Shown: piece after piece, positions 6,656 to 62,938 of the stretch | How positions within the stretch are numbered: the first letter of the stretch is position 1 | Layout: every line of letters begins with the position of its first letter | NCBI GenBank assembly: GCA_045636325.1 | Contig: JAZTXH010000009.1 | Coordinates: 59,479-123,478 of the forward strand | Reading direction: 5' to 3' | Source of the DNA: Clostridia bacterium | Lineage (GTDB): Bacteria > Bacillota > Clostridia > UBA1381 > UMGS1253 | DNA length: 64,000 bases | Program-made: the position numbers and the translations under genes | Notes under the pieces: generated by a model | The model's database searches: none | Seen by the model: the letters and a program-made list of their open reading frames with translations, nothing else | What the model was told of the DNA's origin: nothing

Positions 6656-8635
6656 TTATTCCTCAACAGGAGCTGCTGCTTGTTCAACAACTTCAGCGGG
6701 CATTTCCTCTGCAGACGCTTCTTCTACAGGAAGAAGTGCTCTTATGCTAAGGCTGATTCTCTTCTTTTCCCAGTCAAGCTCCGTAATCTTAGCTTCAACT
6801 TCCTGACCAAGTGTAAGCTCATCTGCAGGCTCTTTAATTCTCTTGTTTGCAATCTGAGAAATATGGATAAGGCCGTCAACTCCTGGGATAAGCTCAACAA
6901 ATGCACCAAAGGGCATAAAACGAACTACCTTACAGCTAACAACGTCTTCTAAGTTAAACTTATTCTGAGCAATAACCCATGGATTGTCTTCCGCTTTCTT
7001 AAAACCAAGAGAAATCTTCTTTGTATCCTCAGCGATTTCCTTAATGTAAACTTCAATTGAATCTCCTTCGTTAACAACTTCAGTAGGAGTCTTAATTCTC
7101 TTCCAGCTAAGCTCGCTGATGTGAAGTAAACCTTCAACACCGCCAATATCAACAAATACACCGAAAGGCATTACAGACTTAACAACACCTGTATACTTCT
7201 TGCCAACTTCACAGTCAGCCCAGAATTTTTCTGCCAAAGCTTTCTTCTGCTCAACCAACACATCGCGAATTGAACCTAAGATACGCTTACGTCTCTGATT
7301 AATTTCTGTGATACGAAGTTTGACTTCCTGATTAACAAAAACAGATAAATCCTCTGTGTATCTGTCAGATACTTTTCTTGCAGGAACAAACACGCGGCTA
7401 CCCTCAACCAAAACAATAATACCGCCGTTTACTACACTTATTACTTTACCTGTTAAAATTTCTTTGCTTTCCAAAGCATCCTCAATCTTTTTCCAGCCTG
7501 CAATAGAATCAAGCTTTTTCTTGGAAAGAACAGTTTTGCCTTCGCCGTCATTAACGCCTACAACAAACACAGAAATAACGTCGCCTACTTTTACAATGTC
7601 TTTAGGATTTACATCCGGATCGTCTGTAAGCTCGTCTGCTGCAATTATACCGTCTGACTTAAATCCAAGGTCAACAATAACCTCAGTAGGTCTAACGTCT
7701 ACAACTGTACCTTCAACCACGTCTCCTGTATTTAAAGTCTTTAGAGTTTGCTCCATAGCCTCCTCAAAGCTTAATTCTGCGCCATTTTTAATTTCTTCCA
7801 TTGCTTTCGCTACCTCCTCGATAATACCGGCCGGAGTTGAGGCACCGGCAGTAATACCTATTTTTTTGTTTTTATAATTTATATCCTGAGGAATTTCCTC
7901 AAAATTTTCAATATGAAAAGTGTCTTTGCAGTTCTTTTTGCAAATATCGTATAATTTTACGGTGTTTGAACTGCTTTTTCCGCCTACAACAAACATAACA
8001 TCACACTTTTTTGAAATCTCGCCTGCTTCTGCCTGACGATTCTTTGTTGCATTGCAAATGGTGTCGCAAATAAGAGCATCAGTGCTTTTTTCTTTAAGTA
8101 TGCGGCATATGTTTTCGAAGTTTTCACGGCTTCCGGTGGTTTGTGAAACCACGCATATTTTTTCATTATCAATTTTTTCTGCTTCACGGGGAGTATTGAT
8201 AATTATATGCCTGCCTTCTTTGCACCAACCTGCAATACCAATAACCTCAGGATGATTCCTGTTACCCACTATTACAACAAATCTGCCGTCATCGGTCTGT
8301 TCTCTTACAATATCGTGAATTTTTTTAACATAAGGGCATGTAAGGTCAATCATTTCAAGACCAAGGGATTTAATCTTATCTTCAACCGCTTTGCTGACAC
8401 CGTGAGCTCTTATAACAACACACGCATCCTTCGCGCTTTCATCAACAGACTCGATTTTTCGGACTCCCTTTGAATATAAATCACTGTTAACCTGAGGGTT
8501 ATGAATAAGCTCACCAAGCAAAGCAATTTTTCTTTTCTCATCAAGCAAACTGTAAACCCCGTCAACCGCACGCTTAACGCCAAAGCAAAAGCCTGCGCTT
8601 TTAACAACTGTAATATCTTTTATAATACTTTCCAT
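6656..8635 (-). CDS. ispH: bifunctional IspH (HMBPP reductase) / ribosomal protein S1-like fusion
   Basis: 659 aa. The N-terminal ~280 aa is LytB/IspH. The C-terminal part has four S1 OB-fold repeats (GxVxxVxxFGAFVxL-type blocks). Confidence 0.9.
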   Translation of the reverse strand: MESIIKDITVVKSAGFCFGVKRAVDGVYSLLDEKRKIALLGELIHNPQVNSDLYSKGVRKIESVDESAKDACVVIRAHGVSKAVEDKIKSLGLEMIDLTCPYVKKIHDIVREQTDDGRFVVIVGNRNHPEVIGIAGWCKEGRHIIINTPREAEKIDNEKICVVSQTTGSRENFENICRILKEKSTDALICDTICNATKNRQAEAGEISKKCDVMFVVGGKSSSNTVKLYDICKKNCKDTFHIENFEEIPQDINYKNKKIGITAGASTPAGIIEEVAKAMEEIKNGAELSFEEAMEQTLKTLNTGDVVEGTVVDVRPTEVIVDLGFKSDGIIAADELTDDPDVNPKDIVKVGDVISVFVVGVNDGEGKTVLSKKKLDSIAGWKKIEDALESKEILTGKVISVVNGGIIVLVEGSRVFVPARKVSDRYTEDLSVFVNQEVKLRITEINQRRKRILGSIRDVLVEQKKALAEKFWADCEVGKKYTGVVKSVMPFGVFVDIGGVEGLLHISELSWKRIKTPTEVVNEGDSIEVYIKEIAEDTKKISLGFKKAEDNPWVIAQNKFNLEDVVSCKVVRFMPFGAFVELIPGVDGLIHISQIANKRIKEPADELTLGQEVEAKITELDWEKKRISLSIRALLPVEEASAEEMPAEVVEQAAAPVEE

Positions 8636-52751: not shown

Positions 52752-52850
52752 TTTGTATTAAATGTCTTTCAAATTATACATCTATTTTTTTCTTGTATTT
52801 TGTCAAATTATATGATAAAATTAAGTATATAACAAAAAGGGGGTGTGTTT

Positions 52851-53705
52851 ATGGGTTTTAAGGAGGGGAGACGCATAAAAAGCGGTGCACCAATGGATTC
52901 TGTAGCACCGTTTATTATGCCTACAAGAGGAGGTGCCTCCAATTATTTTTCCGCTTCTGTTGATATTGAAAGATGCGAACAACTTATTCGTGAAAAGCGC
53001 AAAGAAGGCTTAAAAGGTCTTGGTATGATTCATATATTTATGGCAGCTTATGTAAGACTCATTTCTCAGGTTCCGGGTGTAAACCGCTTTCTTCGCGGTC
53101 AACGGGTTTATGCAAGAAATAATATTGAAATATGCATGGCAATTAAAAAGGAAATGAAACTTAATGCGCCGGAAACAGTTATAAAGCTGCTGCCAAAACA
53201 CGATGATACTTTAATAGATATTTATAATCAGTTAAGCAAAGAATTAATCGAAAACAAGCAGATGGGTGACCATAATAATATGGATGGAGTTGCAAGGCTT
53301 TTAACAAAAATTCCAGGTGTATTTTTAAAATTTACCGTATGGTTTTTAAAGCTTTTGGATTATTTCGGGCTACTTCCCCGTTTTCTTACGAAGCTTAGCC
53401 CATTCCATGGTTCAATGTTTATAACTGATATGGGCTCGTTAGGTCTGCCGCCGATTTACCACCATTTATATGAATTTGGCAATCTTCCGGTATTTATTGC
53501 AATGGGCTCAAAAAGAACAGAATATGTAACAACTGCCGAAGGCGAGGTTAAAAAGCGTCGTTTAATTGACTTTACAATAGTTTGCGATGAAAGAATATGT
53601 GACGGACATTATTATGCAACTGCATTTAAAACACTTAAACGTCTTTTGGAAAAACCAGAGCAGCTTTTATCACCACCTGAAAAAGTAGTTGAAGATATAA
53701 AATAA
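52851..53705 (+). CDS. stand-alone 2-oxoacid dehydrogenase E2-type acyltransferase catalytic-domain protein (atypical active site)
   Basis: ~284 aa with no lipoyl or PSBD domains. The C-terminal block reads CDERICDGHYYA where E2/CAT enzymes have DHRxxDG. ATG with an AAGGGGGTG SD. Confidence 0.6.
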   Translation: MGFKEGRRIKSGAPMDSVAPFIMPTRGGASNYFSASVDIERCEQLIREKRKEGLKGLGMIHIFMAAYVRLISQVPGVNRFLRGQRVYARNNIEICMAIKKEMKLNAPETVIKLLPKHDDTLIDIYNQLSKELIENKQMGDHNNMDGVARLLTKIPGVFLKFTVWFLKLLDYFGLLPRFLTKLSPFHGSMFITDMGSLGLPPIYHHLYEFGNLPVFIAMGSKRTEYVTTAEGEVKKRRLIDFTIVCDERICDGHYYATAFKTLKRLLEKPEQLLSPPEKVVEDIK

Positions 53706-53766: not shown

Positions 53767-54477
53767 TTAATTTTCAGAATATATAACTATAAGATCCGGA
53801 TGAAGCTGAAGAATTGAAGCCGGCACTTCGGGAGTTATAGGACCGAAAAATGCCTTGTTTACGATTTCTTCTTTACTTTTGCCGTTTGCAATCAATAACA
53901 CTTTTTTAGCCTGCATTATAGCACCCATACCCATTGTTATTGCTTCCTTTGGCACATCATCTATCGAATCAAAGAAGCGTGCATTTGCCTCAATTGTTGA
54001 CGGATCAAGCTTTACAACGTGAGTTTCCTTTGTAAAAAATTCCTCTGGCTCATTAAAACCTATATGACCATCAAAACCGATGCCCAAAAGCTGAAGGTCT
54101 ATTCCGCCAAGCGCCTTAATACGCTCATCATATTTTTCGCCTTCTTTTTTCAAATCTTCTGCACAACCATCAGGTACAAATGTAAAATCGCGGCGAATAT
54201 TAATTTTCGAAAACAGATTTGTATCCATAAAATAACGATAGCTCTGGTCATTATCGCCTGTAAGACCAACATACTCATCCAAATTTACGGAAGTAACCTC
54301 TGAAAAGTCAACATCACCAGCCTCATATTTTTCAATAAGCTTTTCGTATGTTCCAAGAGGACTTGAGCCTGTTGCAAGACCGAGCACACTCTCAGGCTTT
54401 GAAATAACCTGTGCTGCTATAATTTCAGCTGCCTTACGGCTTAACTTTTCATAACTGTCTACTTTAATAAATCTCAC
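53767..54477 (-). CDS. nagB: glucosamine-6-phosphate deaminase
   Basis: 236 aa. NagB blocks LGLATGSSP and GIGFDGHIGFNEP. Confidence 0.85.
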   Translation of the reverse strand: MRFIKVDSYEKLSRKAAEIIAAQVISKPESVLGLATGSSPLGTYEKLIEKYEAGDVDFSEVTSVNLDEYVGLTGDNDQSYRYFMDTNLFSKINIRRDFTFVPDGCAEDLKKEGEKYDERIKALGGIDLQLLGIGFDGHIGFNEPEEFFTKETHVVKLDPSTIEANARFFDSIDDVPKEAITMGMGAIMQAKKVLLIANGKSKEEIVNKAFFGPITPEVPASILQLHPDLIVIYSEN

Positions 54478-54504: not shown

Positions 54505-55173
54505 TTATTTTCTTTTTACTATATTGTCCATACTTTTAACAATACAGCCTGCTGCAAAAACGCCCCTGAGTGAATTAAGAGGGTAAACAGTTGTGTTCTT
54601 TCCTATCACTGTTCCGGGATTAAGCACACATGAGCATCCAACATCTGCCCCGTCTGCCAATACACCGCCAATTTTTCTTATTCCGGTTTTATAATCAATA
54701 TCCCCATGAATAACAACCGGCTTGCCGTCAGCCTTAAGATTAGAACAAATAGACCCTGCACCCATATGAGCGTGATTGCCCAATATAGAATCTCCTATAT
54801 AATTATAATGCGGAACTTGCACTTTGTCAAGTAAAATACAATTTTTTAACTCCGATGAATTTCCGATAACACAATTTTCACCGGTTATGACACTGCCTCT
54901 TATGAATGCGCCCGGCCTCACTTCACAGTAATGACCTATAATCGTGGGTCCTTCAATTACTGCATTTGGATATATTTTTACATTTTTTCCGACCCATACG
55001 CCTTTTTCTATTTCGAAAAAACCGTCCAAACCATTTTCAATAAGATTTTCAATATACCCTTTTATCTTTTCTAACATCTGCCAGGGATATTCGCTTTTTT
55101 CAAAAAGCTCTTTTAAATAGGGTGTTCTACATTCAAAAAGCTCGTTTGTTTTAACCTGCTTATTCAACACCAT
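54505..55173 (-). CDS. left-handed beta-helix (hexapeptide) acyltransferase resembling the GlmU C-terminal domain
   Basis: ~222 aa. Hexapeptide repeats with HYNYIGDSILGNHAHMGAGSICSN, similar to GlmU LbH. No nucleotidyltransferase domain. Confidence 0.6.
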   Translation of the reverse strand: MVLNKQVKTNELFECRTPYLKELFEKSEYPWQMLEKIKGYIENLIENGLDGFFEIEKGVWVGKNVKIYPNAVIEGPTIIGHYCEVRPGAFIRGSVITGENCVIGNSSELKNCILLDKVQVPHYNYIGDSILGNHAHMGAGSICSNLKADGKPVVIHGDIDYKTGIRKIGGVLADGADVGCSCVLNPGTVIGKNTTVYPLNSLRGVFAAGCIVKSMDNIVKRK

Positions 55174-56782
55174 GTCCCCTTTCAATAATTTTGTCTGAAA
55201 CAATCTGTGCATATTCTATGCATTTATCTTTACTTTCACACTCAATCATAACTCTTATAACTGGCTCTGTTCCGCTTTGACGCAAAAGCACTCTTCCCTT
55301 TCCTCCAATAAGTTTTTCCACATAAGAAAGCTCTTCAATCACTGCATCATCCGTCATAACTGATTTCTTATCCTTAACGCGAATATTTTTCATATACTGC
55401 GGATACAATTTAACTGGCTCAGCAAGCTCTGACAAAGAACGTTTTCTATCACAAACTTCTTCAGTAAGCATTATAGCTGTAAGTATACCATCACCGGTGG
55501 TCGCATATTTTTTCAAAATTATATGCCCCGATTGTTCACCGCCAAGACAATAATCATTTTGTTGCATGCTCTCATACACAAATCTATCGCCAACATTTGT
55601 TTGTACACATTTTATGCCCTCTTCTTCAAGGCTGGAAAGCAGTCCGCTGTTTGTCATAACTGTTGCAACTATAGTATTGTGGTTAAGCACACCTCTGTTT
55701 TTTAAACGCTTACCTAAAATATAGAGCATTAAATCACCATCTACTACATTTCCGTTTTCATCAACTGCTATACATCTGTCAGCATCTCCATCGAAGGCAA
55801 AACCCATATCAAGGTGCTGTTCACGAACAAGCTTACAAAGATTTTCAATATGAGTTGAGCCACACCCTTCATTTACATTAAGTCCGTTAGGTTCGGCTCC
55901 AATTACAACAGTTTGTGCACCAAGCGCTCCAAATACCGCTTTTGCAATCATCCACGAAGCGCCGTTAGCACAGTCCAATCCAATTTTAAGCGATTTATAT
56001 GAATGTGACGCAATAGAAATCAAATAACCAAGATATCGGTTTCTGCCTGATGCATAGTCTACAATGCAACCAATTTTCTCTCTGCCTGCCAAAGGTAGGT
56101 CATCAGATACAACACCAAATGCCTTTAAATCACCATCAATATAGCTTTCTATAAGTGAAGTTGTAGAATCTTCAAGTTTTTCACCATAGCGGTTTATAAC
56201 CTTTATACCATTATCATAATATGGATTATGAGATGCAGTAATCATTATACCGCAATCAAACTCATCCTGACGGGTAACATAAGAAACACTTGGTGTTGTG
56301 GTAACATGCAGCATATATGCATCCGCACCTGATGCTGTAATTCCTGCAACAATGGAATATTCAAGCATATAACTTGACCTTCTTGTGTCTTTTCCTATAA
56401 CAATTCTTGGTCTGTATCCAGCCTTTGTGTTACCTGAAAGCGCAGAAGAATAATACCACCCCAGAAAACGACCAACCTTATATGCCTGCATAGATGTAAG
56501 CGTAAGGTTTGCCTCACCGCGAAAACCGTCAGTTCCAAAATACTTATTTGAGCCTAATTTCTTCTCAATCTTATGATTTATAGTAATTTTATCCTGTAAT
56601 AATTCGTCTGTTGAAATATCAAACAACTCACAAAGCTGTAAAACCTTATCAATCTGCGGAATTGCCTGATCCATTTCCCATTTTGAAACAGACTGTCTGG
56701 AAACTGAAATCCTTTCTGCCAATTGCTCCTGAGAAATATTAGCGGCGGTTCTAAGTTTTAAAATTTTTTCACCTATAGTCAT
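55160..56782 (-). CDS. glmM: XRE-type HTH domain fused to phosphoglucosamine mutase
   Basis: 540 aa. Residues 1 to ~65 are HTH_3 (LRTAANISQEQLAERISVSRQSVSKWE). The remainder is intact GlmM (TASHNP, FDGDADR, GGEQSGH, RQSGTEP). Confidence 0.85.
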   Translation of the reverse strand: MTIGEKILKLRTAANISQEQLAERISVSRQSVSKWEMDQAIPQIDKVLQLCELFDISTDELLQDKITINHKIEKKLGSNKYFGTDGFRGEANLTLTSMQAYKVGRFLGWYYSSALSGNTKAGYRPRIVIGKDTRRSSYMLEYSIVAGITASGADAYMLHVTTTPSVSYVTRQDEFDCGIMITASHNPYYDNGIKVINRYGEKLEDSTTSLIESYIDGDLKAFGVVSDDLPLAGREKIGCIVDYASGRNRYLGYLISIASHSYKSLKIGLDCANGASWMIAKAVFGALGAQTVVIGAEPNGLNVNEGCGSTHIENLCKLVREQHLDMGFAFDGDADRCIAVDENGNVVDGDLMLYILGKRLKNRGVLNHNTIVATVMTNSGLLSSLEEEGIKCVQTNVGDRFVYESMQQNDYCLGGEQSGHIILKKYATTGDGILTAIMLTEEVCDRKRSLSELAEPVKLYPQYMKNIRVKDKKSVMTDDAVIEELSYVEKLIGGKGRVLLRQSGTEPVIRVMIECESKDKCIEYAQIVSDKIIERGHGVE

Positions 56783-56931
56783 AATAAGTTCACTCCTTAT
56801 TGATTTGCGTGTACAATACCACTATATTCAATAATACCAAAACAAATACTACCATTCAAGCAACTTTACCTTAAATTTCCTGCAACCTTAAGTTGCTAAA
56901 AACTTTTATTTTTCATTTCTTTTTCTTGTTT

Positions 56932-56960
56932 ATTATATAACAATTGGTCATTTCTGTAAA
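56932..56960 (-). promoter_or_regulatory. sigma-A promoter of the HTH-glmM operon
   Basis: Minus strand reads TTTACA (56955-56960), a 17-nt spacer, then TATAAT (56932-56937). Confidence 0.55.
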
Positions 56961-56977
56961 TATTTATTTACAGAAAT
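56950..56977. promoter_or_regulatory. 28-bp perfect palindrome overlapping the -35 (operator candidate)
   Basis: ATTTCTGTAAAT-attt-ATTTACAGAAAT. The core TGTAA-N8-TTACA resembles a TnrA/GlnR box but with one extra spacer base. Confidence 0.5.
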
Positions 56978-57095
56978 TATTAAAATTGCATTATGCAAAT
57001 CATTTAATTTTGTTTCCATATTTTATGTTCCCGCACACTTTTGTTAAATATGCATAATTTCAATAATTATTATAATTTGACCTGTATCCGCTCTC

Positions 57096-57131
57096 AAAAA
57101 CAAATAAAAAGCCCGCCTTATAGCGAGCTTT
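57096..57131 (-). terminator. terminator ending the BMC operon after the DeoR gene
   Basis: Minus RNA reads AAAGCUCGC-uauaa-GGCGGGCUUU followed by UUAUUUGUUUUU. Confidence 0.75.
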
Positions 57132-57135
57132 AATA

Positions 57136-57897
57136 TCATACTTTTACAAGTTCTACCTTGCTTTCTTTTAAAACATTTTCCCAACTTTCGGAAATCGTCG
57201 CATCAGTTATAAGACATTCTATATCTTCAAACCTTGCAAGTTTAGCAAATCCAACTCTGCCAATCTTACTTTTGTCACATAAATAATACGCACTTTTGGA
57301 ATTTTTAAGCATACATTTTTTTATGCCGCACTCCTGCTCATTACTTTCAAGGATTCCCGTTTCTTCCATAATGCCTTTACTGGAAAAAAACATTTTATCA
57401 GCAAAATAATTTTTAGAAATATTATCTTCAGCCAATGTTCCTACAAGGCTCATATTGTGACTAGCAATTCCGCCAACAGCAATAAGCTTAATGTTTTCAC
57501 TACCGGCAAGCTCATTCACAACACGAATGGAATTTGTAATGACAGTAATATTTTTTATATTATTTATTTCCTTTGCCATATAAAAAGTAGTAGTAGACGC
57601 ATCAAGAAAAACTGTGTCACCAGGCAGTATGTATCCTGCTGCCACTGCAGCAAGCTTTTCCTTTGCATCAACATTCGTACGCTTTCTTTTTTCAAGCGAA
57701 AGCTCATATGCAGTTGCATCAATTGGAACAGCTCCGCCATGTGTTCGCATTAAACACTCTTGTTTTTCAAGTTTTTCAAGATCACGTCTTATTGTCTCTT
57801 CTGTAACTCCAAGCTCACTGCTTAATCGGCTTACCCATACTGCACCGTTATCAGCAAGCTTTTGAAGTATAATCTTCTGACGTTCAAGTGCAAACAT
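57136..57897 (-). CDS. DeoR/GlpR family transcriptional regulator
   Basis: N-terminal HTH_DeoR (ERQKIILQKL…VTEETIRRDLEKLE) plus a DeoR C-terminal sensor domain. Starts 11 nt after the pduL stop. Confidence 0.85.
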   Translation of the reverse strand: MFALERQKIILQKLADNGAVWVSRLSSELGVTEETIRRDLEKLEKQECLMRTHGGAVPIDATAYELSLEKRKRTNVDAKEKLAAVAAGYILPGDTVFLDASTTTFYMAKEINNIKNITVITNSIRVVNELAGSENIKLIAVGGIASHNMSLVGTLAEDNISKNYFADKMFFSSKGIMEETGILESNEQECGIKKCMLKNSKSAYYLCDKSKIGRVGFAKLARFEDIECLITDATISESWENVLKESKVELVKV

Positions 57898-57908
57898 ATA
57901 TCTGTCTC

Positions 57909-58583
57909 CTACTTCTGAATTATTCTTACCTTGTTTCCATTCTTGAGGCCGGCTGAGTTTGCATCATCAGTATCAATATGCATCTCAACATTAAAATCAT
58001 CACGAACTCGAACCTGAACACCATAAAATTTTGTAGTTTTTAAGTTTTCGCCTTCTATCATAACGTCAACATAATCATTATCCTTAATGGCGTGCTTTTC
58101 GGCATATTCAGGAGTTAAGTGTATATGGCGGTTGGCAATGATAACGCCTTCCTTTAAATATACGCTACCCTTAGGTCCTACAATAACCAGTTTTTCCGAA
58201 CCCTTAATTTCACCTGAAGGTCTCACCGGAGGGCTAACCTTTAAAACAAACGTATCTGTTCTTGAAATTTCTACTTGAGTATTTTTTCTTACCGGACCCA
58301 AAACCCTTACCTTTTCTATACTTTTCAGTGATGGACCAACCAAAGTAACAAACTCATTTGAAGCATACTCTCTGCCCATAAGAGTTTTAAACTTTGTAAG
58401 CTCATATCCTTTACCGAAAAGAGTGTCTAAATCTTCACGGCTAAGGTGAATGTGTCTTTGTGACACACCTACCTTAATCTCTCCATCATCAGATTCCTTA
58501 TCACTTGCCTGCGGTGCACCGCTTTTATTTATATCAGCAATAACTTCTGCTACTATCTTTTCAATCTGTGCTGCATCGTACAT
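57909..58583 (-). CDS. pduL: phosphate propanoyltransferase (PduL-type phosphotransacylase) with an N-terminal encapsulation peptide
   Basis: Duplicated PduL motifs (GVSQRHIHLS, IIANRHIHLT). An amphipathic N-terminal helix AAQIEKIVAEVIADI. Confidence 0.85.
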   Translation of the reverse strand: MYDAAQIEKIVAEVIADINKSGAPQASDKESDDGEIKVGVSQRHIHLSREDLDTLFGKGYELTKFKTLMGREYASNEFVTLVGPSLKSIEKVRVLGPVRKNTQVEISRTDTFVLKVSPPVRPSGEIKGSEKLVIVGPKGSVYLKEGVIIANRHIHLTPEYAEKHAIKDNDYVDVMIEGENLKTTKFYGVQVRVRDDFNVEMHIDTDDANSAGLKNGNKVRIIQK

Positions 58584-58600
58584 TTATTTCACCTCACAAA

Positions 58601-59248
58601 TTACTCATTCATATCAAAAAACTTAACAATTTCGCCTGATACATTTGCAATAACTTCACAACCGTATACCTTACCAAGCCTTGATGCCGCATTACTGCCG
58701 TTTTCCAAAGCTGATTTAACATCAGAAACTCTGCCCGCAATGATAAATGTACAAAGTCTGCCTCCAAGGCGCTTTTCTGTATGCACAAGGCGTATGTTTG
58801 CCGCCTTAAGCATATTGTCAAGACCTTCTATAGATGCAACAAGCCCCTGAACCTCCAAAAGACCAATGGCACCTGTATAGCTCGGCACAAATTCCCCTTT
58901 TCTTGATTTTTCAAGGTTTTCTTTAAAATGCTTGTTGTATTTATCTTTATTTATATCTGCAAGATACGCCATCTTGTCCACAGTATCCTCAGGTCTTGGA
59001 ATAACATGAGAAACAATAAACTTTCCGCAATCCTTTGCATAAGCGCTTCCTGCTTCAACAGCCGCGTTAACTGCATCGACATTGCCCTCTATCTTTACCA
59101 CCATAACAAGCGGTGCAGGCACATCTGTTCTTATTGGTCTGTTTCTGTCAAAAGCGACAATCTGAACGTCAGCCGCTTTTGCTGCTGTGTCTGCCACACA
59201 AACCGCAGTTGTAAAGCTGTAAACCTCAATCAAACCTAATGCTTTCAT
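58601..59248 (-). CDS. tandem-BMC-domain shell protein (BMC-T)
   Basis: 215 aa. Two non-permuted BMC domains (ALGLIEVYS… and AIGLLEVQG…). Confidence 0.75.
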   Translation of the reverse strand: MKALGLIEVYSFTTAVCVADTAAKAADVQIVAFDRNRPIRTDVPAPLVMVVKIEGNVDAVNAAVEAGSAYAKDCGKFIVSHVIPRPEDTVDKMAYLADINKDKYNKHFKENLEKSRKGEFVPSYTGAIGLLEVQGLVASIEGLDNMLKAANIRLVHTEKRLGGRLCTFIIAGRVSDVKSALENGSNAASRLGKVYGCEVIANVSGEIVKFFDMNE

Positions 59249-59265
59249 TTATAACACTCTCCGTA

Positions 59266-60693
59266 TCAAACAATATGTAGTCCGTCAGCCATTACGCATC
59301 TTCTCTGACGAGTAAAGCTTCTTGCTGATGTAATACCCTCACCGGTAGGTCCTGCAATAGTAAATGTTGTATGACCTTCACCCCCTGCACCGATACCTGC
59401 ATAAGAAGGAGCATTCTTAACAAATATTGTTGTTTCAACTGCACGCGCAAATGCGGTAAGTCTGTCAACATTCTTTGAATGAATATGTGCACTGTGGCGG
59501 TTGCCATGTTCTGCCTTAACTGCCATATTTATAGCTTCTTCAATATCATTAACTCTAACAATAGCAAGAATTGGCATCATCATTTCAACCTGAACAAAAG
59601 GATGATTTTCTTCTGTTTCACAAATAATCAGTTTAGCATCAGCCTCAATTCCAAGCTCTTTTAAGAACTTCTTTGCATCTTTTCCTACCCATTTTTTATT
59701 TATAGAATATTTACCGTCTTTTTCAACAAGACAAAGCTTAACCAAATCATCAATCTGCTTACCCTTAAGAAGATATGCACCTGCATCCTGCATGTAAGCA
59801 ACCAGCTGGTCTGTAATACTTGCAAATGCAAAACATTCTTTTTCTGCAATACAGGGAAGGTTATTGTCAAAGCTTGCACCTGCAACAATATCAGATGCCG
59901 CCTTTTTAATATCAGCAGTATCATCTACTATAACAGGAGGATTGCCTGCACCAGCACCTATTGCCTTCTTGCCTGAAGACAAAAGTGCACGCACAACGCC
60001 TGGGCCACCTGTTGCAACAAGCATCTTTACAAGAGGAGATGCCATCATTTCATCTGAGCTTTCCTTTGTAGGCTGCTCTACTGAAACAACTAAATTTTCA
60101 GGACCGCCTGCTTCAAGAATTGCGCGGTTTACCAAATCAACTGCGTAATTTGCTGTTTTGCACGCATTAGGGTGGGGATTGAAAACAACTGCGTTACCGC
60201 CTGCAATCATACCCATTGAGTTACATAAAACTGTTTCACTGGGATTTGTAGAAGGTGTTATACTTCCAATAACGCCGTAAGGTGCCATCTCTATAAGTGT
60301 AAGACCTGCATCGCCTGTAAATACCTTCGGCTCCAAATCCTCTGTACCAGGAGTCTTTTTTGCCACAAGCTGATGCTTGATAATCTTATCAGGCACATTA
60401 CCCATACCTGTTTCTTCAACACCAAGCTTTGCCATTTCTTCTGCTTCCTGTAATGTAAGCTTTCTAATATTTGAAATCATCTGTTCTCTCTGCTCAACTG
60501 TATATGAGCGGAACTGAGCATATGCCTTACCTACTGCATCCAAAGCTTCGCCCATTGTTTTAAATACACCCTTCTGCGCATGACACTTGCAGTCACCACC
60601 GCAACTGCCGCCACAAGAACATTTGCTCTCGCCATCCATAACGCTCATAACTGCTTCAACAATTTTTGATAACTGTGTTTCATCAATCTTCAT
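59266..60693 (-). CDS. CoA-acylating aldehyde dehydrogenase (PduP/EutE type) with an encapsulation peptide and a Cys-rich linker
   Basis: Catalytic block NNLPCIAEKE. N-terminal helix ETQLSKIVEAVMSVM. Linker CSCGGSCGGDCKCH at residues 25-38. Confidence 0.85.
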   Translation of the reverse strand: MKIDETQLSKIVEAVMSVMDGESKCSCGGSCGGDCKCHAQKGVFKTMGEALDAVGKAYAQFRSYTVEQREQMISNIRKLTLQEAEEMAKLGVEETGMGNVPDKIIKHQLVAKKTPGTEDLEPKVFTGDAGLTLIEMAPYGVIGSITPSTNPSETVLCNSMGMIAGGNAVVFNPHPNACKTANYAVDLVNRAILEAGGPENLVVSVEQPTKESSDEMMASPLVKMLVATGGPGVVRALLSSGKKAIGAGAGNPPVIVDDTADIKKAASDIVAGASFDNNLPCIAEKECFAFASITDQLVAYMQDAGAYLLKGKQIDDLVKLCLVEKDGKYSINKKWVGKDAKKFLKELGIEADAKLIICETEENHPFVQVEMMMPILAIVRVNDIEEAINMAVKAEHGNRHSAHIHSKNVDRLTAFARAVETTIFVKNAPSYAGIGAGGEGHTTFTIAGPTGEGITSARSFTRQRRCVMADGLHIV

Positions 60694-60748
60694 ATCACAT
60701 TGCTCCTGTCTTTAAAAATATCTATCACAAAAAACTTAATTTTCTACT

Positions 60749-61297
60749 TTATAAAATTGCCTGCCATAGCTTTTTATCGGGATTTGCAATAACAGAACTA
60801 TCAAGAAACATTCCTGCTCCGCCTGCTTTTTCTTTTGCACGTTCAATTGCCGCACTTACAGCTGCAATTTCACCTGTTATAAGCATATAGCTCTTACCGC
60901 ACATTCCCCTTGCAAGCCTTAACTCTATAAGCTCAACCATGCTGGTCTTTGCCGCTTCATCTGCTGCAACAATCATACTTGCCGCACTGTATGTTTCCAA
61001 AACACCCAGCGCCTTTGCATTCTCAATCTCACCGGTACCATATATTGCAGGAATAACCGACTCGTGAGGATTACCAAGAACAAAGCTGTCAATCATTTTA
61101 TCACCACATAAGCTTTTAGCCGCATCCACACAAGCACGCACCGCACTTATCTCCCCCGAAAAAAGCATAATATACTTACCCGGACACACCGTCTGAGCTT
61201 CAATAATTTCCACTTCAGCAGTTTTAACAACCATATCAGCAGCATACATACCTGCCGAAACAGTCTGATATTCTATCATTCCAATTGCACTTCTCAT
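60749..61297 (-). CDS. PduT-like tandem BMC shell protein
   Basis: Two BMC domains with QTVCPGKY (the Cys position that ligates a 4Fe-4S cluster in PduT). Start set to the ATG with a GGAGGAGAG SD. Confidence 0.75.
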   Translation of the reverse strand: MRSAIGMIEYQTVSAGMYAADMVVKTAEVEIIEAQTVCPGKYIMLFSGEISAVRACVDAAKSLCGDKMIDSFVLGNPHESVIPAIYGTGEIENAKALGVLETYSAASMIVAADEAAKTSMVELIELRLARGMCGKSYMLITGEIAAVSAAIERAKEKAGGAGMFLDSSVIANPDKKLWQAIL

Positions 61298-61314
61298 ATT
61301 ATTCTCTCCTCCGC

Positions 61315-62646
61315 TCACGCATCAATCACAACAAACCTGTCGCATACTTCTTTTACTTTTCCGCTGACAGATGCATGAATGTCTGTTCCTAAAGCATCTA
61401 AGGGTGCTTTGGCAATAACATCGCCCAAATTCACCTTGTCGCCTTTTTTAACAACCGGCACGCAACCCGCACCGATATTTTGCGCCATTGAAATCTTTAC
61501 TCGTTTGATTTTCAATTCTTCTTCCGTTAATTTTGCTTCTCTATCATATTTTTTAAGATTTAATCTTGCCGTTAATCTTGACATAGACACTCTACGGTAA
61601 GAAAAATCCTTCTTTTCGTCTTTAAGTTCACGTTTTGGTGGCTTTATGCCATTTTTTCTAAGCCCGCTTCTGTACTCATCAATAAGAGTCTTTGGCGAAA
61701 GCATTTGATTACAAGCAAACATCTCACACAAGCCGCACTGCGAACAAAAGAATGTGTCAAGCATTGCGTCTGTATCAAGCACTGTTCCCGAAGACGCTGC
61801 ATGCATAAAAACAGCTGGGTCAATTGGGTATCCCAATGCATTTCTTGGGCATAAATCCGTGCACATTCTGCACTGACAACACGCACTCATTGCCCTTTTC
61901 ATACCGATAGACGGATTAATCAGCCTTTTTGTAACTATATTATGTTCTTTTGGCATAACAAGAATTGCATTGCTTGTTTTAGTTACCGTATCAGTTTCGT
62001 TTACTATTCTGCCCGTCATAGGACCACCGCCTATCAACACACAGTTTTCTATAGTTTTTCCACCACAAAGCTCTATAAGCTCACCATATGTTGTACCAAT
62101 CGGCACTTTTAAGGTTTTTGCCGTTTCTACCTCACCTGTAACAGTTACATATTTATGGGTAACCGGCAATTTTTCCTCTACTGCATTATAAATGTTTAAT
62201 ACTGTTTCAACATTAAATACTATACATCCTATCTGAATAGGAATTCCCCCCGGCGGAACACGTTTCTTTGTTGCCTCATGAATTAAAACAACCTCGTCTC
62301 CGGCAGGATATATTTCAGGCAAAGTGCACACGCTTACACCTTCGAAAGCGTCAATATAACTCATAACTGAATCATAAGCTTCTTTGTATGAGCCTTTAAG
62401 ACAAATTATTACTTCCTTTGCCGAAACCGCTTTTTTTATAAGGTCAAGACCTTTTAAAATTTCCAGGGCATAATTTGCCAGAAGCTGACGGTGAAGTTTT
62501 AAAAGCGGCTCACATTCAGCACAATTCAAAAGGATAGTTTGCGCTCTTTCGTCAAGCTTAGCATAGCTTGGAAAGCCCGCACCACCGGCACCTGCTATTC
62601 CGTTGTCTTTTAAAATTCCTTTTAGCTCTTCAAGCTTCATTTGCAT
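61315..62646 (-). CDS. PduS/RnfC-like flavin- and 4Fe-4S-binding oxidoreductase
   Basis: 443 aa. GAGGAGFPSYAKL, an SLBB-like middle region, and two CxxCxxCxxxCP ferredoxin motifs. Confidence 0.75.
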   Translation of the reverse strand: MQMKLEELKGILKDNGIAGAGGAGFPSYAKLDERAQTILLNCAECEPLLKLHRQLLANYALEILKGLDLIKKAVSAKEVIICLKGSYKEAYDSVMSYIDAFEGVSVCTLPEIYPAGDEVVLIHEATKKRVPPGGIPIQIGCIVFNVETVLNIYNAVEEKLPVTHKYVTVTGEVETAKTLKVPIGTTYGELIELCGGKTIENCVLIGGGPMTGRIVNETDTVTKTSNAILVMPKEHNIVTKRLINPSIGMKRAMSACCQCRMCTDLCPRNALGYPIDPAVFMHAASSGTVLDTDAMLDTFFCSQCGLCEMFACNQMLSPKTLIDEYRSGLRKNGIKPPKRELKDEKKDFSYRRVSMSRLTARLNLKKYDREAKLTEEELKIKRVKISMAQNIGAGCVPVVKKGDKVNLGDVIAKAPLDALGTDIHASVSGKVKEVCDRFVVIDA

Positions 62647-62671: not shown

Positions 62672-62938
62672 TTATAAGTTCACCCAGTCATCAACGATAC
62701 CTACGATAGCGGCATCAACCGGTGAAGTGTCCATACTGCAACCTATTCTTGCTGCGCTTCCAGTTGCAATCAAAACAATTTCACCTATTCCGGCACCAAC
62801 GTTATCAACAGCAACTATTCTGCCTTCGCCCATGCCTTCCATGGGTGAAACTATTAAAAACTTACTTCCAACAAGATTTTCATTTTTTCGTGTCGCAACA
62901 ACACTTCCTACAACCTTACCAACAATCATGAATTTCAC
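62672..62938 (-). CDS. EutN/CcmL-family pentameric vertex protein (BMC-P)
   Basis: 88 aa. (M)IVGKVVGSVVATRK N-terminus. The start could be the GTG at 62938 or the ATG at 62929. Confidence 0.85.
   Translation of the reverse strand: MKFMIVGKVVGSVVATRKNENLVGSKFLIVSPMEGMGEGRIVAVDNVGAGIGEIVLIATGSAARIGCSMDTSPVDAAIVGIVDDWVNL

Follow-up and report, generated by a model that had tools for sequence, protein, structure and literature searches.

A phosphoglucosamine mutase fused to an XRE-type helix-turn-helix domain in gut Clostridia and a conserved palindrome at the promoter of its gene

The fused gene and its product

The 64,000-nucleotide stretch of Clostridia bacterium DNA analyzed here (contig JAZTXH010000009.1 of assembly GCA_045636325.1; hereafter, the window) contains on its minus strand, at 55160..56782, a gene that encodes a phosphoglucosamine mutase (GlmM) preceded by an XRE-type helix-turn-helix (HTH) domain. 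The gene is an uninterrupted open reading frame of 540 amino acids plus the stop codon, starts MTIGEKILKLRTAANISQEQ and is preceded on the same strand by a ribosome-binding site, AAGGAG (56793-56798), read from the sequence. In the predicted protein, denoted HTH-GlmM, Pfam searches identify HTH_3 (residues 8-61) followed by PGM_PMM_I (80-216), PGM_PMM_II (257-344), PGM_PMM_III (348-457) and PGM_PMM_IV (464-529), all four PGM_PMM domains scoring above their own cutoffs. A first-pass annotation of this DNA, made from the letters alone, had described an XRE-family HTH domain joined to an intact GlmM, and this description is borne out by the Pfam matches, by the NCBIfam profile TIGR01455, by the uninterrupted reading frame and by the recurrence of the fusion in at least 240 protein clusters. 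The missed stop or frameshift at the junction of the two domains that the same annotation had considered is absent, and no in-frame stop lies near the junction in the 20 loci examined. Given this continuous frame and the presence of the same fusion, identically uninterrupted, in hundreds of independent assemblies (NCBI, ENA, JGI, Logan), the joining of two neighboring genes through a sequencing or assembly error retains practically no probability and was ruled out.

The enzyme half (residues 79-540; 55163..56548, minus strand) comprises a complete phosphoglucosamine mutase moiety, as indicated by structural alignment and by the catalytic motifs. It matches the glmM equivalog profile TIGR01455 with 499.6 bits against a cutoff of 447.55, such that residues 82-532 cover profile positions 1-440 of 442, and it aligns end to end with Bacillus subtilis GlmM (PDB 7ojr, residues 2-439 of the latter; E 1e-122). 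The PDB matches start at residue 72-80 of the query, and in this comparison residues 1-71 have no counterpart in any solved GlmM. A Foldseek search with an AF2 model of the protein (a monomer, built on 73 homologues, mean pLDDT 84.3) yielded target-normalized TM-scores of 0.89-0.93 to 7ojr, 6gyz (chains A and B) and 3pdk (chain A), the GlmMs of B. subtilis, Staphylococcus aureus and Bacillus anthracis, respectively. Thus, the protein has the four domains and every motif of the canonical GlmMs and is 44-46% identical to them when aligned structurally by Foldseek. To ordinary unfused GlmMs of Clostridia, which match it only from residue 70-80 or so, the GlmM part is 55-63% identical.

The four motifs that had been reported from the first inspection of the sequence (TASHNP, DGDADR, GGEQSGH and RQSGTEP) are all there, and an alignment of 73 diverse fused proteins, with 63-87% identity to the window protein, reveals invariant residues in each: A183-S184-H185-N186 in the catalytic serine loop T-A-S-H-N-P, D331-G332-D333-x-D335-R336 in the Mg loop D-G-D-x-D-R, G415-E416-x-x-G419-H420 in the sugar loop G-E-Q-S-G-H, and R501-x-S503-x-T505-E506 in the phosphate loop R-x-S-G-T-E-P. 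Most likely, then, the C-terminal 462 residues constitute a working phosphoglucosamine mutase that converts glucosamine-6-phosphate (GlcN-6-P) to glucosamine-1-phosphate (GlcN-1-P).

The HTH domain (residues 1-62; 56597..56782, minus strand) is recognized by HTH_3 with 53.6 bits (cutoff 23) and by HTH_19 with 48.9 bits (cutoff 30.2), and the AF2 model places five helices in it (residues 3-13, 18-24, 29-36, 44-54 and 58-62), with block-mean pLDDT values of 78-90 across residues 1-60. The nearest solved relatives of the isolated N-terminus are ImmR of ICEBs1 (7t8i) and the P22 C2 repressor. Twelve HTH residues are invariant in the 73 homologues (K6, L10, R11, S17, S28, R29, Q30, S33, W35, E36, P42 and D59), among them the recognition-helix residues S28, R29, Q30, S33, W35 and E36, and the core of helices 2-3 (residues 17-36) is the best conserved stretch of the domain, with a mean majority-residue fraction of 0.92. 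Judged by the profile matches, the two halves belong fully to their respective families, HTH_3 for the N-terminus and GlmM for the enzyme.

Between the two domains lies a linker of low conservation (residues 63-78; 56549..56596, minus strand) that the AF2 model renders with a pLDDT of about 51. A linker had been noted at first inspection and does exist, but it measures about 16 residues in the window protein rather than the 20 or so that had been suggested; among the homologues the gap between D59 and Y81 ranges from 18 to 34 residues. Median identity to the window protein across the 73 fused homologues is 74% for the HTH domain, 73% for GlmM and 19% for the linker. Because the HTH domain is as conserved as the enzyme while the linker varies and the catalytic loops are invariant, this pattern appears to be the signature of purifying selection on both halves, that is, of two functional domains connected by a flexible tether.

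The same combination of HTH and PGM_PMM_I-IV, a search for which the first-pass annotation had suggested, turned out to be widespread. In a space of 5.8 billion proteins clustered at 90% identity, the window protein retrieved at least 120 clusters at 79-100% identity, all of about 540 amino acids and with the same domain set, and a query with the most divergent genomic member (L017) added at least 120 clusters, all of them fused, with identities of 64-99%. A search for contigs encoding the window protein itself returned no record. Some of these clusters hold hundreds of member sequences or occur on 41-59 contigs and, where the databases give a name, it is solely 'phosphoglucosamine mutase'. 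Among GTDB species representatives, at least 21 genomes, all from gut Clostridia, carry a fused locus; these metagenome-assembled genomes (MAGs) derive from goat, sheep, buffalo and water deer, among other sources, and are labeled Ruminococcus sp., Acutalibacteraceae, Christensenellaceae or Clostridia.

In a neighbor-joining tree of the GlmM part alone, every fused gene falls into one clade, which indicates that the fusion arose once. Nested within this clade is a GlmM (locus L018, 2433-3815) that shares 78% identity with L011, its fused sister, starts MSFERKVNKYFGTDG and has neither the HTH domain nor the palindrome described below, with the acetyltransferase gene that accompanies the fused genes still downstream. 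By its position in the tree, this gene is a case of secondary loss of the HTH domain and as such a natural HTH-less control. A search with residues 1-130 against a representative library at 50% identity found no independent HTH-GlmM fusions; its matches were fragments from this very family or proteins with multiple HTH domains, and it tells little on breadth since fused and unfused GlmMs seem to be lumped together in the library. Two apparent full-length fusion matches (L032 and L040) were discarded as they really represent an unfused glmM followed by a separate gene. That gene (7509-7694 and downstream), which starts about 130 nt 3' of glmM, combines an HTH_3 domain with hydrophobic, transmembrane-like segments.

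Palindromes at the promoter of the fused gene

When the upstream regions of the fused genes were stacked, and 23 fused loci compared with 59 unfused glmM loci, a perfect palindrome emerged, GCAACTTAAGGTTGC (56882-56896 in the window; consensus GCAACY-N3-RGTTGC), which we denote O1. With at most one mismatch it is found in 22 of the 23 fused loci, exactly in 15, and the remaining locus (L007) has it with two mismatches. The genomes that carry it span 33-60% GC, and the intergenic sequence around it is unconserved. The 400 nt upstream of the 59 unfused genes contain no exact copy and two copies with one mismatch, which corresponds to the background (9 hits in 650 kb). The co-occurrence of O1 with the fusion is accordingly tight by count (22 of 23 versus 59 unfused loci; Fisher p about 1e-16), a p value that overstates the independence of the observations because the fused clade is monophyletic. 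A palindrome at the gene's own promoter is what would be expected if the fused protein were to bind DNA and control the operon that encodes it, and the conservation of the palindrome, the new element of this analysis, suggests an operator. The initial proposal that the enzyme doubles as a metabolite-sensing transcription factor thus gains support in its regulatory part from a palindrome that stands at the promoter of essentially every fused locus and, in exact form, at none of the 59 unfused ones.

The exact O1 sequence occurs only once in the window, and a search for a wider regulon detected no other exact copy, either there or across some 300 kb of flanking sequence. An O1-like sequence with one mismatch at 62738-62752, GCAACCTATTCTTGC, was dismissed given that it lies inside what appears to be the coding sequence of an EutN/PduN-type vertex protein and that such matches are at chance level (2.2 expected, 3 found).

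Seven nucleotides past O1 lies a weaker, proximal candidate operator, O2 (TTAAGGTAAAGTTGC; 56860-56874, minus strand; consensus TCAAn-N5-GTTGS). Its column counts over the 23 loci are T16, C13, A15 and A15 in the left arm and G16, T20, T20 and G17 in the right arm, and its center is 22 bp, or two helical turns, from that of O1. O2 abuts the -35 box of a predicted promoter, P1 (56831..56859, minus strand), in which TTGAAT (56854-56859) is separated by a 17-nt spacer from a TGn-extended -10 box, TATTAT (56831-56836). A consensus scan of the region showed P1 to be the sole candidate that carries the TG extension and, with its good -35 and extended -10 boxes, P1 appears to be activator-independent. 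An automated scan placed the start of the -35 box 37-39 nt after the start of O1 in 18 of the 23 fused loci; in L002, L005 and L081 a weaker -35 box is seen by eye at the matching position, and L017 has about 12 nt, or about one helical turn, more in this interval, so that the helical phase is kept. In the usual numbering, O1 would be centered near -65 and O2 near -43 from the predicted start site.

The palindromes at 56950-56998 that the first-pass annotation had singled out for a binding test are real in that perfect 13-nt arms exist at 56950-56962 and 56965-56977; they are not, however, the main operator of the family, which is predicted at 56882-56896. The palindrome at 56950-56977 was therefore dropped from that role and re-read as a site of the window's subclade, O3, the core of which is GTAAATAAATATTTAC (56956-56971) within the 28-bp palindrome. 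The O3 form GYAAAY-N4-RTTTRC is present with at most two mismatches in 9 of the 23 fused loci, and two more have an O1-like 15-mer in its place; in all 11 the center-to-center distance to O1 is 72.5-74.5 bp, about seven helical turns. Since the O3 half-site GYAAAY resembles the GCAACY of O1 and the spacing is fixed, we read O3 as a putative auxiliary operator of the subclade. It overlaps the -35 box of a possible upstream promoter, TTTACA-17-TATAAT (56960..56932), with respect to which O1 would lie downstream of the start. That promoter stays a candidate only, because a comparable -35/-10 pair was found by eye in only about half of the O3-bearing loci.

Immediately 5' of O3, at 56982-57011, the window contains more AT-rich imperfect palindromes, including TTGCAT-A-ATGCAA, the arm orientation of which differs from that of O1; none was seen in the other loci. 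In two loci (L084 and L085), another O1-like site, TCAACTGCCGGTTGC, is found 127 bp upstream of O1. In this GC-rich branch, the gene just 5' of HTH-glmM (L084, 6626-7555; L085, 996-1925) encodes an HTH_3 domain combined with Peptidase_S24, as in LexA or phage repressors. As regards RNA-based control, neither the window nor 8 related loci gave an Rfam match to a riboswitch or ribozyme in the 350-nt leader. In particular, no glmS ribozyme was found in the window or in 8 fused loci, two of which (L081 and L016) have glmS in the operon.

The hexosamine operon and its predicted control

The second gene of the operon (54505..55173, minus strand) encodes a stand-alone left-handed beta-helix acetyltransferase of about 222 amino acids with Hexapep, LbH_EIF2B and Hexapep_GlmU matches. 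Its likely start is the ATG at 55173, which results in a 14-nt overlap with the end of glmM, stop codon included, and the two genes appear to be translationally coupled. The product matches the archaeal-type GlmU profile TIGR03992 (Arch_glmU) at positions 215-389 of 393 only, that is, over the C-terminal, acetyltransferase half, and may accordingly represent one part of a split GlmU, with the uridylyltransferase encoded elsewhere. The acetyltransferase gene lies directly 3' of the fused gene in 18 of the 21 fused genome loci and also adjoins glmM in many unfused relatives; such adjacency was observed among loci L001-L022 and L029-L080.

The third gene, 27 nt further on (53767..54477, minus strand), is nagB, encoding glucosamine-6-phosphate deaminase (TIGR00502, 275.9 bits versus a cutoff of 236.9). 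Eight other fused loci have nagB 3' of the fused gene, either after the acetyltransferase gene (L004, L006, L008, L009, L020 and L022) or with no acetyltransferase gene detectable (L005 and L007). In L002, L016 and L081-83, its place is taken by glmS (TIGR01135, 706 bits; at 3747-5561 in L002, 8273-10081 in L016 and 10522-12354 in L081). This swap between nagB and glmS, which occurs among relatives with up to 78% identity in HTH-GlmM, leads us to suggest that some of these gut lineages may use NagB for the ammonium-dependent synthesis of GlcN-6-P. Clusters of glmM, the acetyltransferase gene and glmS are found in unfused relatives too. Thus, as judged from the gene order, the fused gene heads an operon that makes or consumes GlcN-6-P and converts it toward N-acetylglucosamine-1-phosphate, a context that is the same as that of ordinary housekeeping GlmMs. 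The gene that follows nagB is convergent, so that the operon ends with nagB. This convergent gene (52845-53705, plus strand) encodes a protein of 286 amino acids, only the C-terminal 60 or so residues of which match the catalytic domain of 2-oxoacid dehydrogenase acyltransferases.

This context bears on the possibility that an ordinary glmM elsewhere in the genome performs the housekeeping function and that the fused protein has become mainly a regulator or sensor on a GlmM scaffold, along a path like that of the regulator BzdR discussed below. Regulators derived from enzymes are known (PMC3602430), and the gene content covered here comprises 64 kb from this genome and, for the other genomes, flanks of about 14 kb. 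Nevertheless, the catalytic residues are all invariant in 73 divergent members, the glmM equivalog cutoff is passed, the identity to other Clostridia GlmMs is as high as 55-63%, and the fused genes share the glmM/acetyltransferase/glmS context of their unfused counterparts. Moreover, the gene that lost the HTH domain within the fused clade (L018) was itself kept. A second glmM was detected neither in the 64-kb window nor, by a scan relying on exact peptide patterns, in any genome among the 80 best loci, none of which contributed two. Taken together, these observations render a specialized paralogue quite unlikely.

We propose instead, with a probability that we put at about 0.6, that HTH-GlmM is a bifunctional enzyme whose XRE-type HTH domain recognizes the palindrome at its own promoter and that it most likely represses the hexosamine operon. 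The HTH domain, on a flexible tether of 16-30 residues, would recognize the palindromic operator at the promoter of the gene that encodes it. GlmM has been described as a dimer (PMC6368335), and hence the two HTH domains per molecule would suit the two half-sites of O1, which in the 15-bp palindrome lie one helical turn apart. A second dimer could then bind, in cooperation with the first, to the weaker O2, which is offset by two helical turns and touches the -35 box, and in the subclade of the window O3, seven turns upstream and overlapping the candidate second promoter, might be bound as well. The occupied sites would repress HTH-glmM together with the genes for the GlcN-1-P-type acetyltransferase and NagB (GlmS in relatives), so that the production of the enzymes that generate and process GlcN-6-P would be under the control of the one that uses it up. 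What the sequence data show are the conserved fusion, the intact catalytic motifs, the conserved arrangement of the operator sites and the genes of the operon; DNA binding by the HTH domain, the fit of the dimer to the palindrome and repression in preference to activation are what we infer here. Repression is favored because P1 looks strong and activator-independent, because O2 abuts the -35 box of P1 and O3 overlaps that of the candidate second promoter, and because the bound protein would be bulky (two subunits of about 60 kDa each).

Several considerations weigh against this proposal. As the fused clade is monophyletic, the co-occurrence of HTH domain and operator amounts, phylogenetically, to one event, and their joint absence from L018 could reflect a single deletion that took the 5' end of the gene together with the promoter. 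Furthermore, P1 was called by consensus matching in AT-rich DNA (27 promoter-like hits versus 14.8 expected), yet its position is conserved. Finally, O1 and O2 lie upstream of the -35 box, clear of the -10 box and the start site, a placement that would also be compatible with activation.

The non-independence of the co-occurrence bears on the question of which protein uses the operator. Conceivably, another transcription factor binds there and the HTH domain serves, for example, in protein-protein contacts or nucleoid tethering; recognition helix and operator are both invariant, which leaves no covariation to exploit. This alternative nevertheless appears very unlikely, since the size of the palindrome and the spacing of its half-sites suit an HTH dimer, the site stands at the protein's own promoter, the usual place for autoregulation in the XRE family, conservation within the HTH domain peaks in the helix that would contact DNA, and no other regulator gene is conserved beside the locus.

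The placement of the sites, in turn, raises the possibility of an autoactivator: RNA polymerase would be recruited by dimers bound to O1 and O2, at about -65 and -43, respectively, in the manner of lambda cI at PRM. Lambda cI bound to OR1 and OR2 activates PRM, and the geometry of these sites is comparable to that of O1 and O2, the 22-bp spacing of which puts both on one face of the helix. However, with a near-consensus TTGAnn -35 box, a 17-nt spacer and a -10 box that is frequently TG-extended, P1 should not need an activator, and the location of O3 over the -35 box of the candidate upstream promoter, with O1 past the start site of the latter, is repressor-like. We regard autoactivation as rather unlikely, yet as a serious competitor.

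With repression by HTH-GlmM itself as the preferred reading, it remains to ask what the protein would respond to. A true trigger enzyme would read the GlcN-6-P/GlcN-1-P pool, or the state of its own phosphoserine, via the active site and repress the hexosamine operon accordingly; we consider this elaboration tentative, and the notion that GlcN-6-P, GlcN-1-P, glucosamine-1,6-bisphosphate or the phosphoserine state alters the affinity for DNA is speculative. A plain autogenous circuit, in which HTH-GlmM would repress its operon by protein concentration alone and so buffer the level of the enzyme with no metabolite sensing, is a comparably possible, minority view. All the support for DNA binding fits this simpler model equally well, and the long, variable and predicted disordered linker may argue against tight allosteric coupling, while being compatible with coupling as well as with its absence. 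Flexibly tethered repressors can, on the other hand, be ligand-controlled via the geometry of the oligomer, the linker of BzdR mediates interdomain communication (PMC3602430), and the enzymes of the operon make or consume the very substrate of GlmM, a situation in which metabolite feedback is the norm.

Known systems and the wider neighborhood

Synthesis of UDP-N-acetylglucosamine feeds peptidoglycan and other polymers of the cell envelope, and its entry steps are controlled by the glmS ribozyme, GlmY/GlmZ, NagC/NagR and GlmR. Of these, the glmS ribozyme, NagR and NagC, which are, respectively, an RNA and proteins of the GntR and ROK families, sense GlcN-6-P or N-acetylglucosamine-6-phosphate and control amino-sugar genes. 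HTH-GlmM could be their functional analogue, given the potential for feedback on hexosamine genes including glmS, but the molecules are entirely different and sensing by HTH-GlmM is hypothetical. In Bacilli, glmM is found in the arrangement cdaA-cdaR-glmM; the neighborhood of HTH-glmM differs from that of canonical glmM by the acetyltransferase gene with nagB or glmS.

The presence of an active metabolic enzyme and a DNA-binding domain in one polypeptide that regulates genes of its own pathway has precedents in BirA, NadR and PutA. RbkR is described as an archaeal riboflavin kinase and regulator that replaces the FMN riboswitch (PMC5397151). HTH-GlmM resembles all four in combining an enzyme and a DNA-binding domain in a single polypeptide and differs from them in that those proteins belong to other enzyme families and mostly use other DNA-binding folds, and in that ligand control of DNA binding is experimentally established for them and hypothetical here.

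The closest architectural parallel is BzdR of Azoarcus sp. CIB, a dimeric repressor that consists of an XRE-type HTH domain, a linker and a shikimate-kinase-like domain and acts on operators at its target promoter; the sensor domain has lost catalysis and binds benzoyl-CoA, and an engineered chimera with an active kinase, Q1, has been proposed as the 'missing link' in the evolution of BzdR (PMC3602430). The likeness, namely an N-terminal XRE-type HTH domain, a linker and a C-terminal domain of enzyme type, is architectural only. The enzyme part of HTH-GlmM belongs to the alpha-D-phosphohexomutase superfamily, is four times larger and retains all catalytic residues, and its predicted target is its own biosynthetic operon whereas that of BzdR is catabolic. 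With an intact GlmM in place of a shikimate-kinase-like domain, the protein falls outside the BzdR type. By analogy, HTH-GlmM looks like a natural protein at the Q1-like stage and would provide a natural case of an enzyme newly recruiting a DNA-binding domain, a stage that for BzdR has been reconstructed only artificially.

Repressors of the ImmR, P22 C2 and lambda cI type have the most similar HTH domains, and the several phased palindromes beside the promoter of HTH-glmM resemble their operator arrays. These phage and integrative-element repressors control lysogeny and rely for dimerization on C-terminal or peptidase-type domains of their own, in contrast to HTH-GlmM, which would dimerize through a metabolic enzyme.

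The statement of the first-pass annotation that the HTH domain lies outside the standard description of GlmM agrees with our full-text literature searches, which found no report of a GlmM, or of any phosphohexomutase, that carries a DNA-binding domain or acts as a DNA-binding regulator. If the proposal is correct, a pathway enzyme equipped with its own DNA-binding domain would represent a new and very direct design of control. Should the protein prove to be a trigger enzyme, it would, moreover, be the first phosphohexomutase shown to be a transcription factor and, in a lineage of uncultured gut Clostridia, would replace the glmS ribozyme by a protein. This lineage abounds in gut metagenomes, those of ruminants included, and the regulatory half of the protein is invisible to current annotation, which reads 'phosphoglucosamine mutase'. 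The proposal lends itself to testing as the operator is defined to the base, L018 provides an HTH-less control and the candidate ligands are commercially available.

Upstream of the fused gene, a terminator-like hairpin with a 10-pair stem followed by a T-run (57108..57131, minus strand) comes after a DeoR-family gene. This gene was considered as part of the system and set aside, since the terminator follows it and no DeoR homologue is found beside any other fused locus. It belongs to a microcompartment locus (57136-62646, minus strand) that encodes a DeoR/AgaR-like regulator, a PduL phosphotransacylase, two shell proteins with tandem BMC domains, an aldehyde dehydrogenase and an RnfC/Nuo51-like (PduS-type) protein, and the hairpin sets this locus apart from the glmM operon. 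In the other genomes, no linkage of microcompartment genes to the glmM operon was found. In one other fused locus (L004, 4482-5141), five tRNA genes and two matches to Gut-1 RNA (RF01706) on opposite strands are located about 1 kb upstream of the fused gene.

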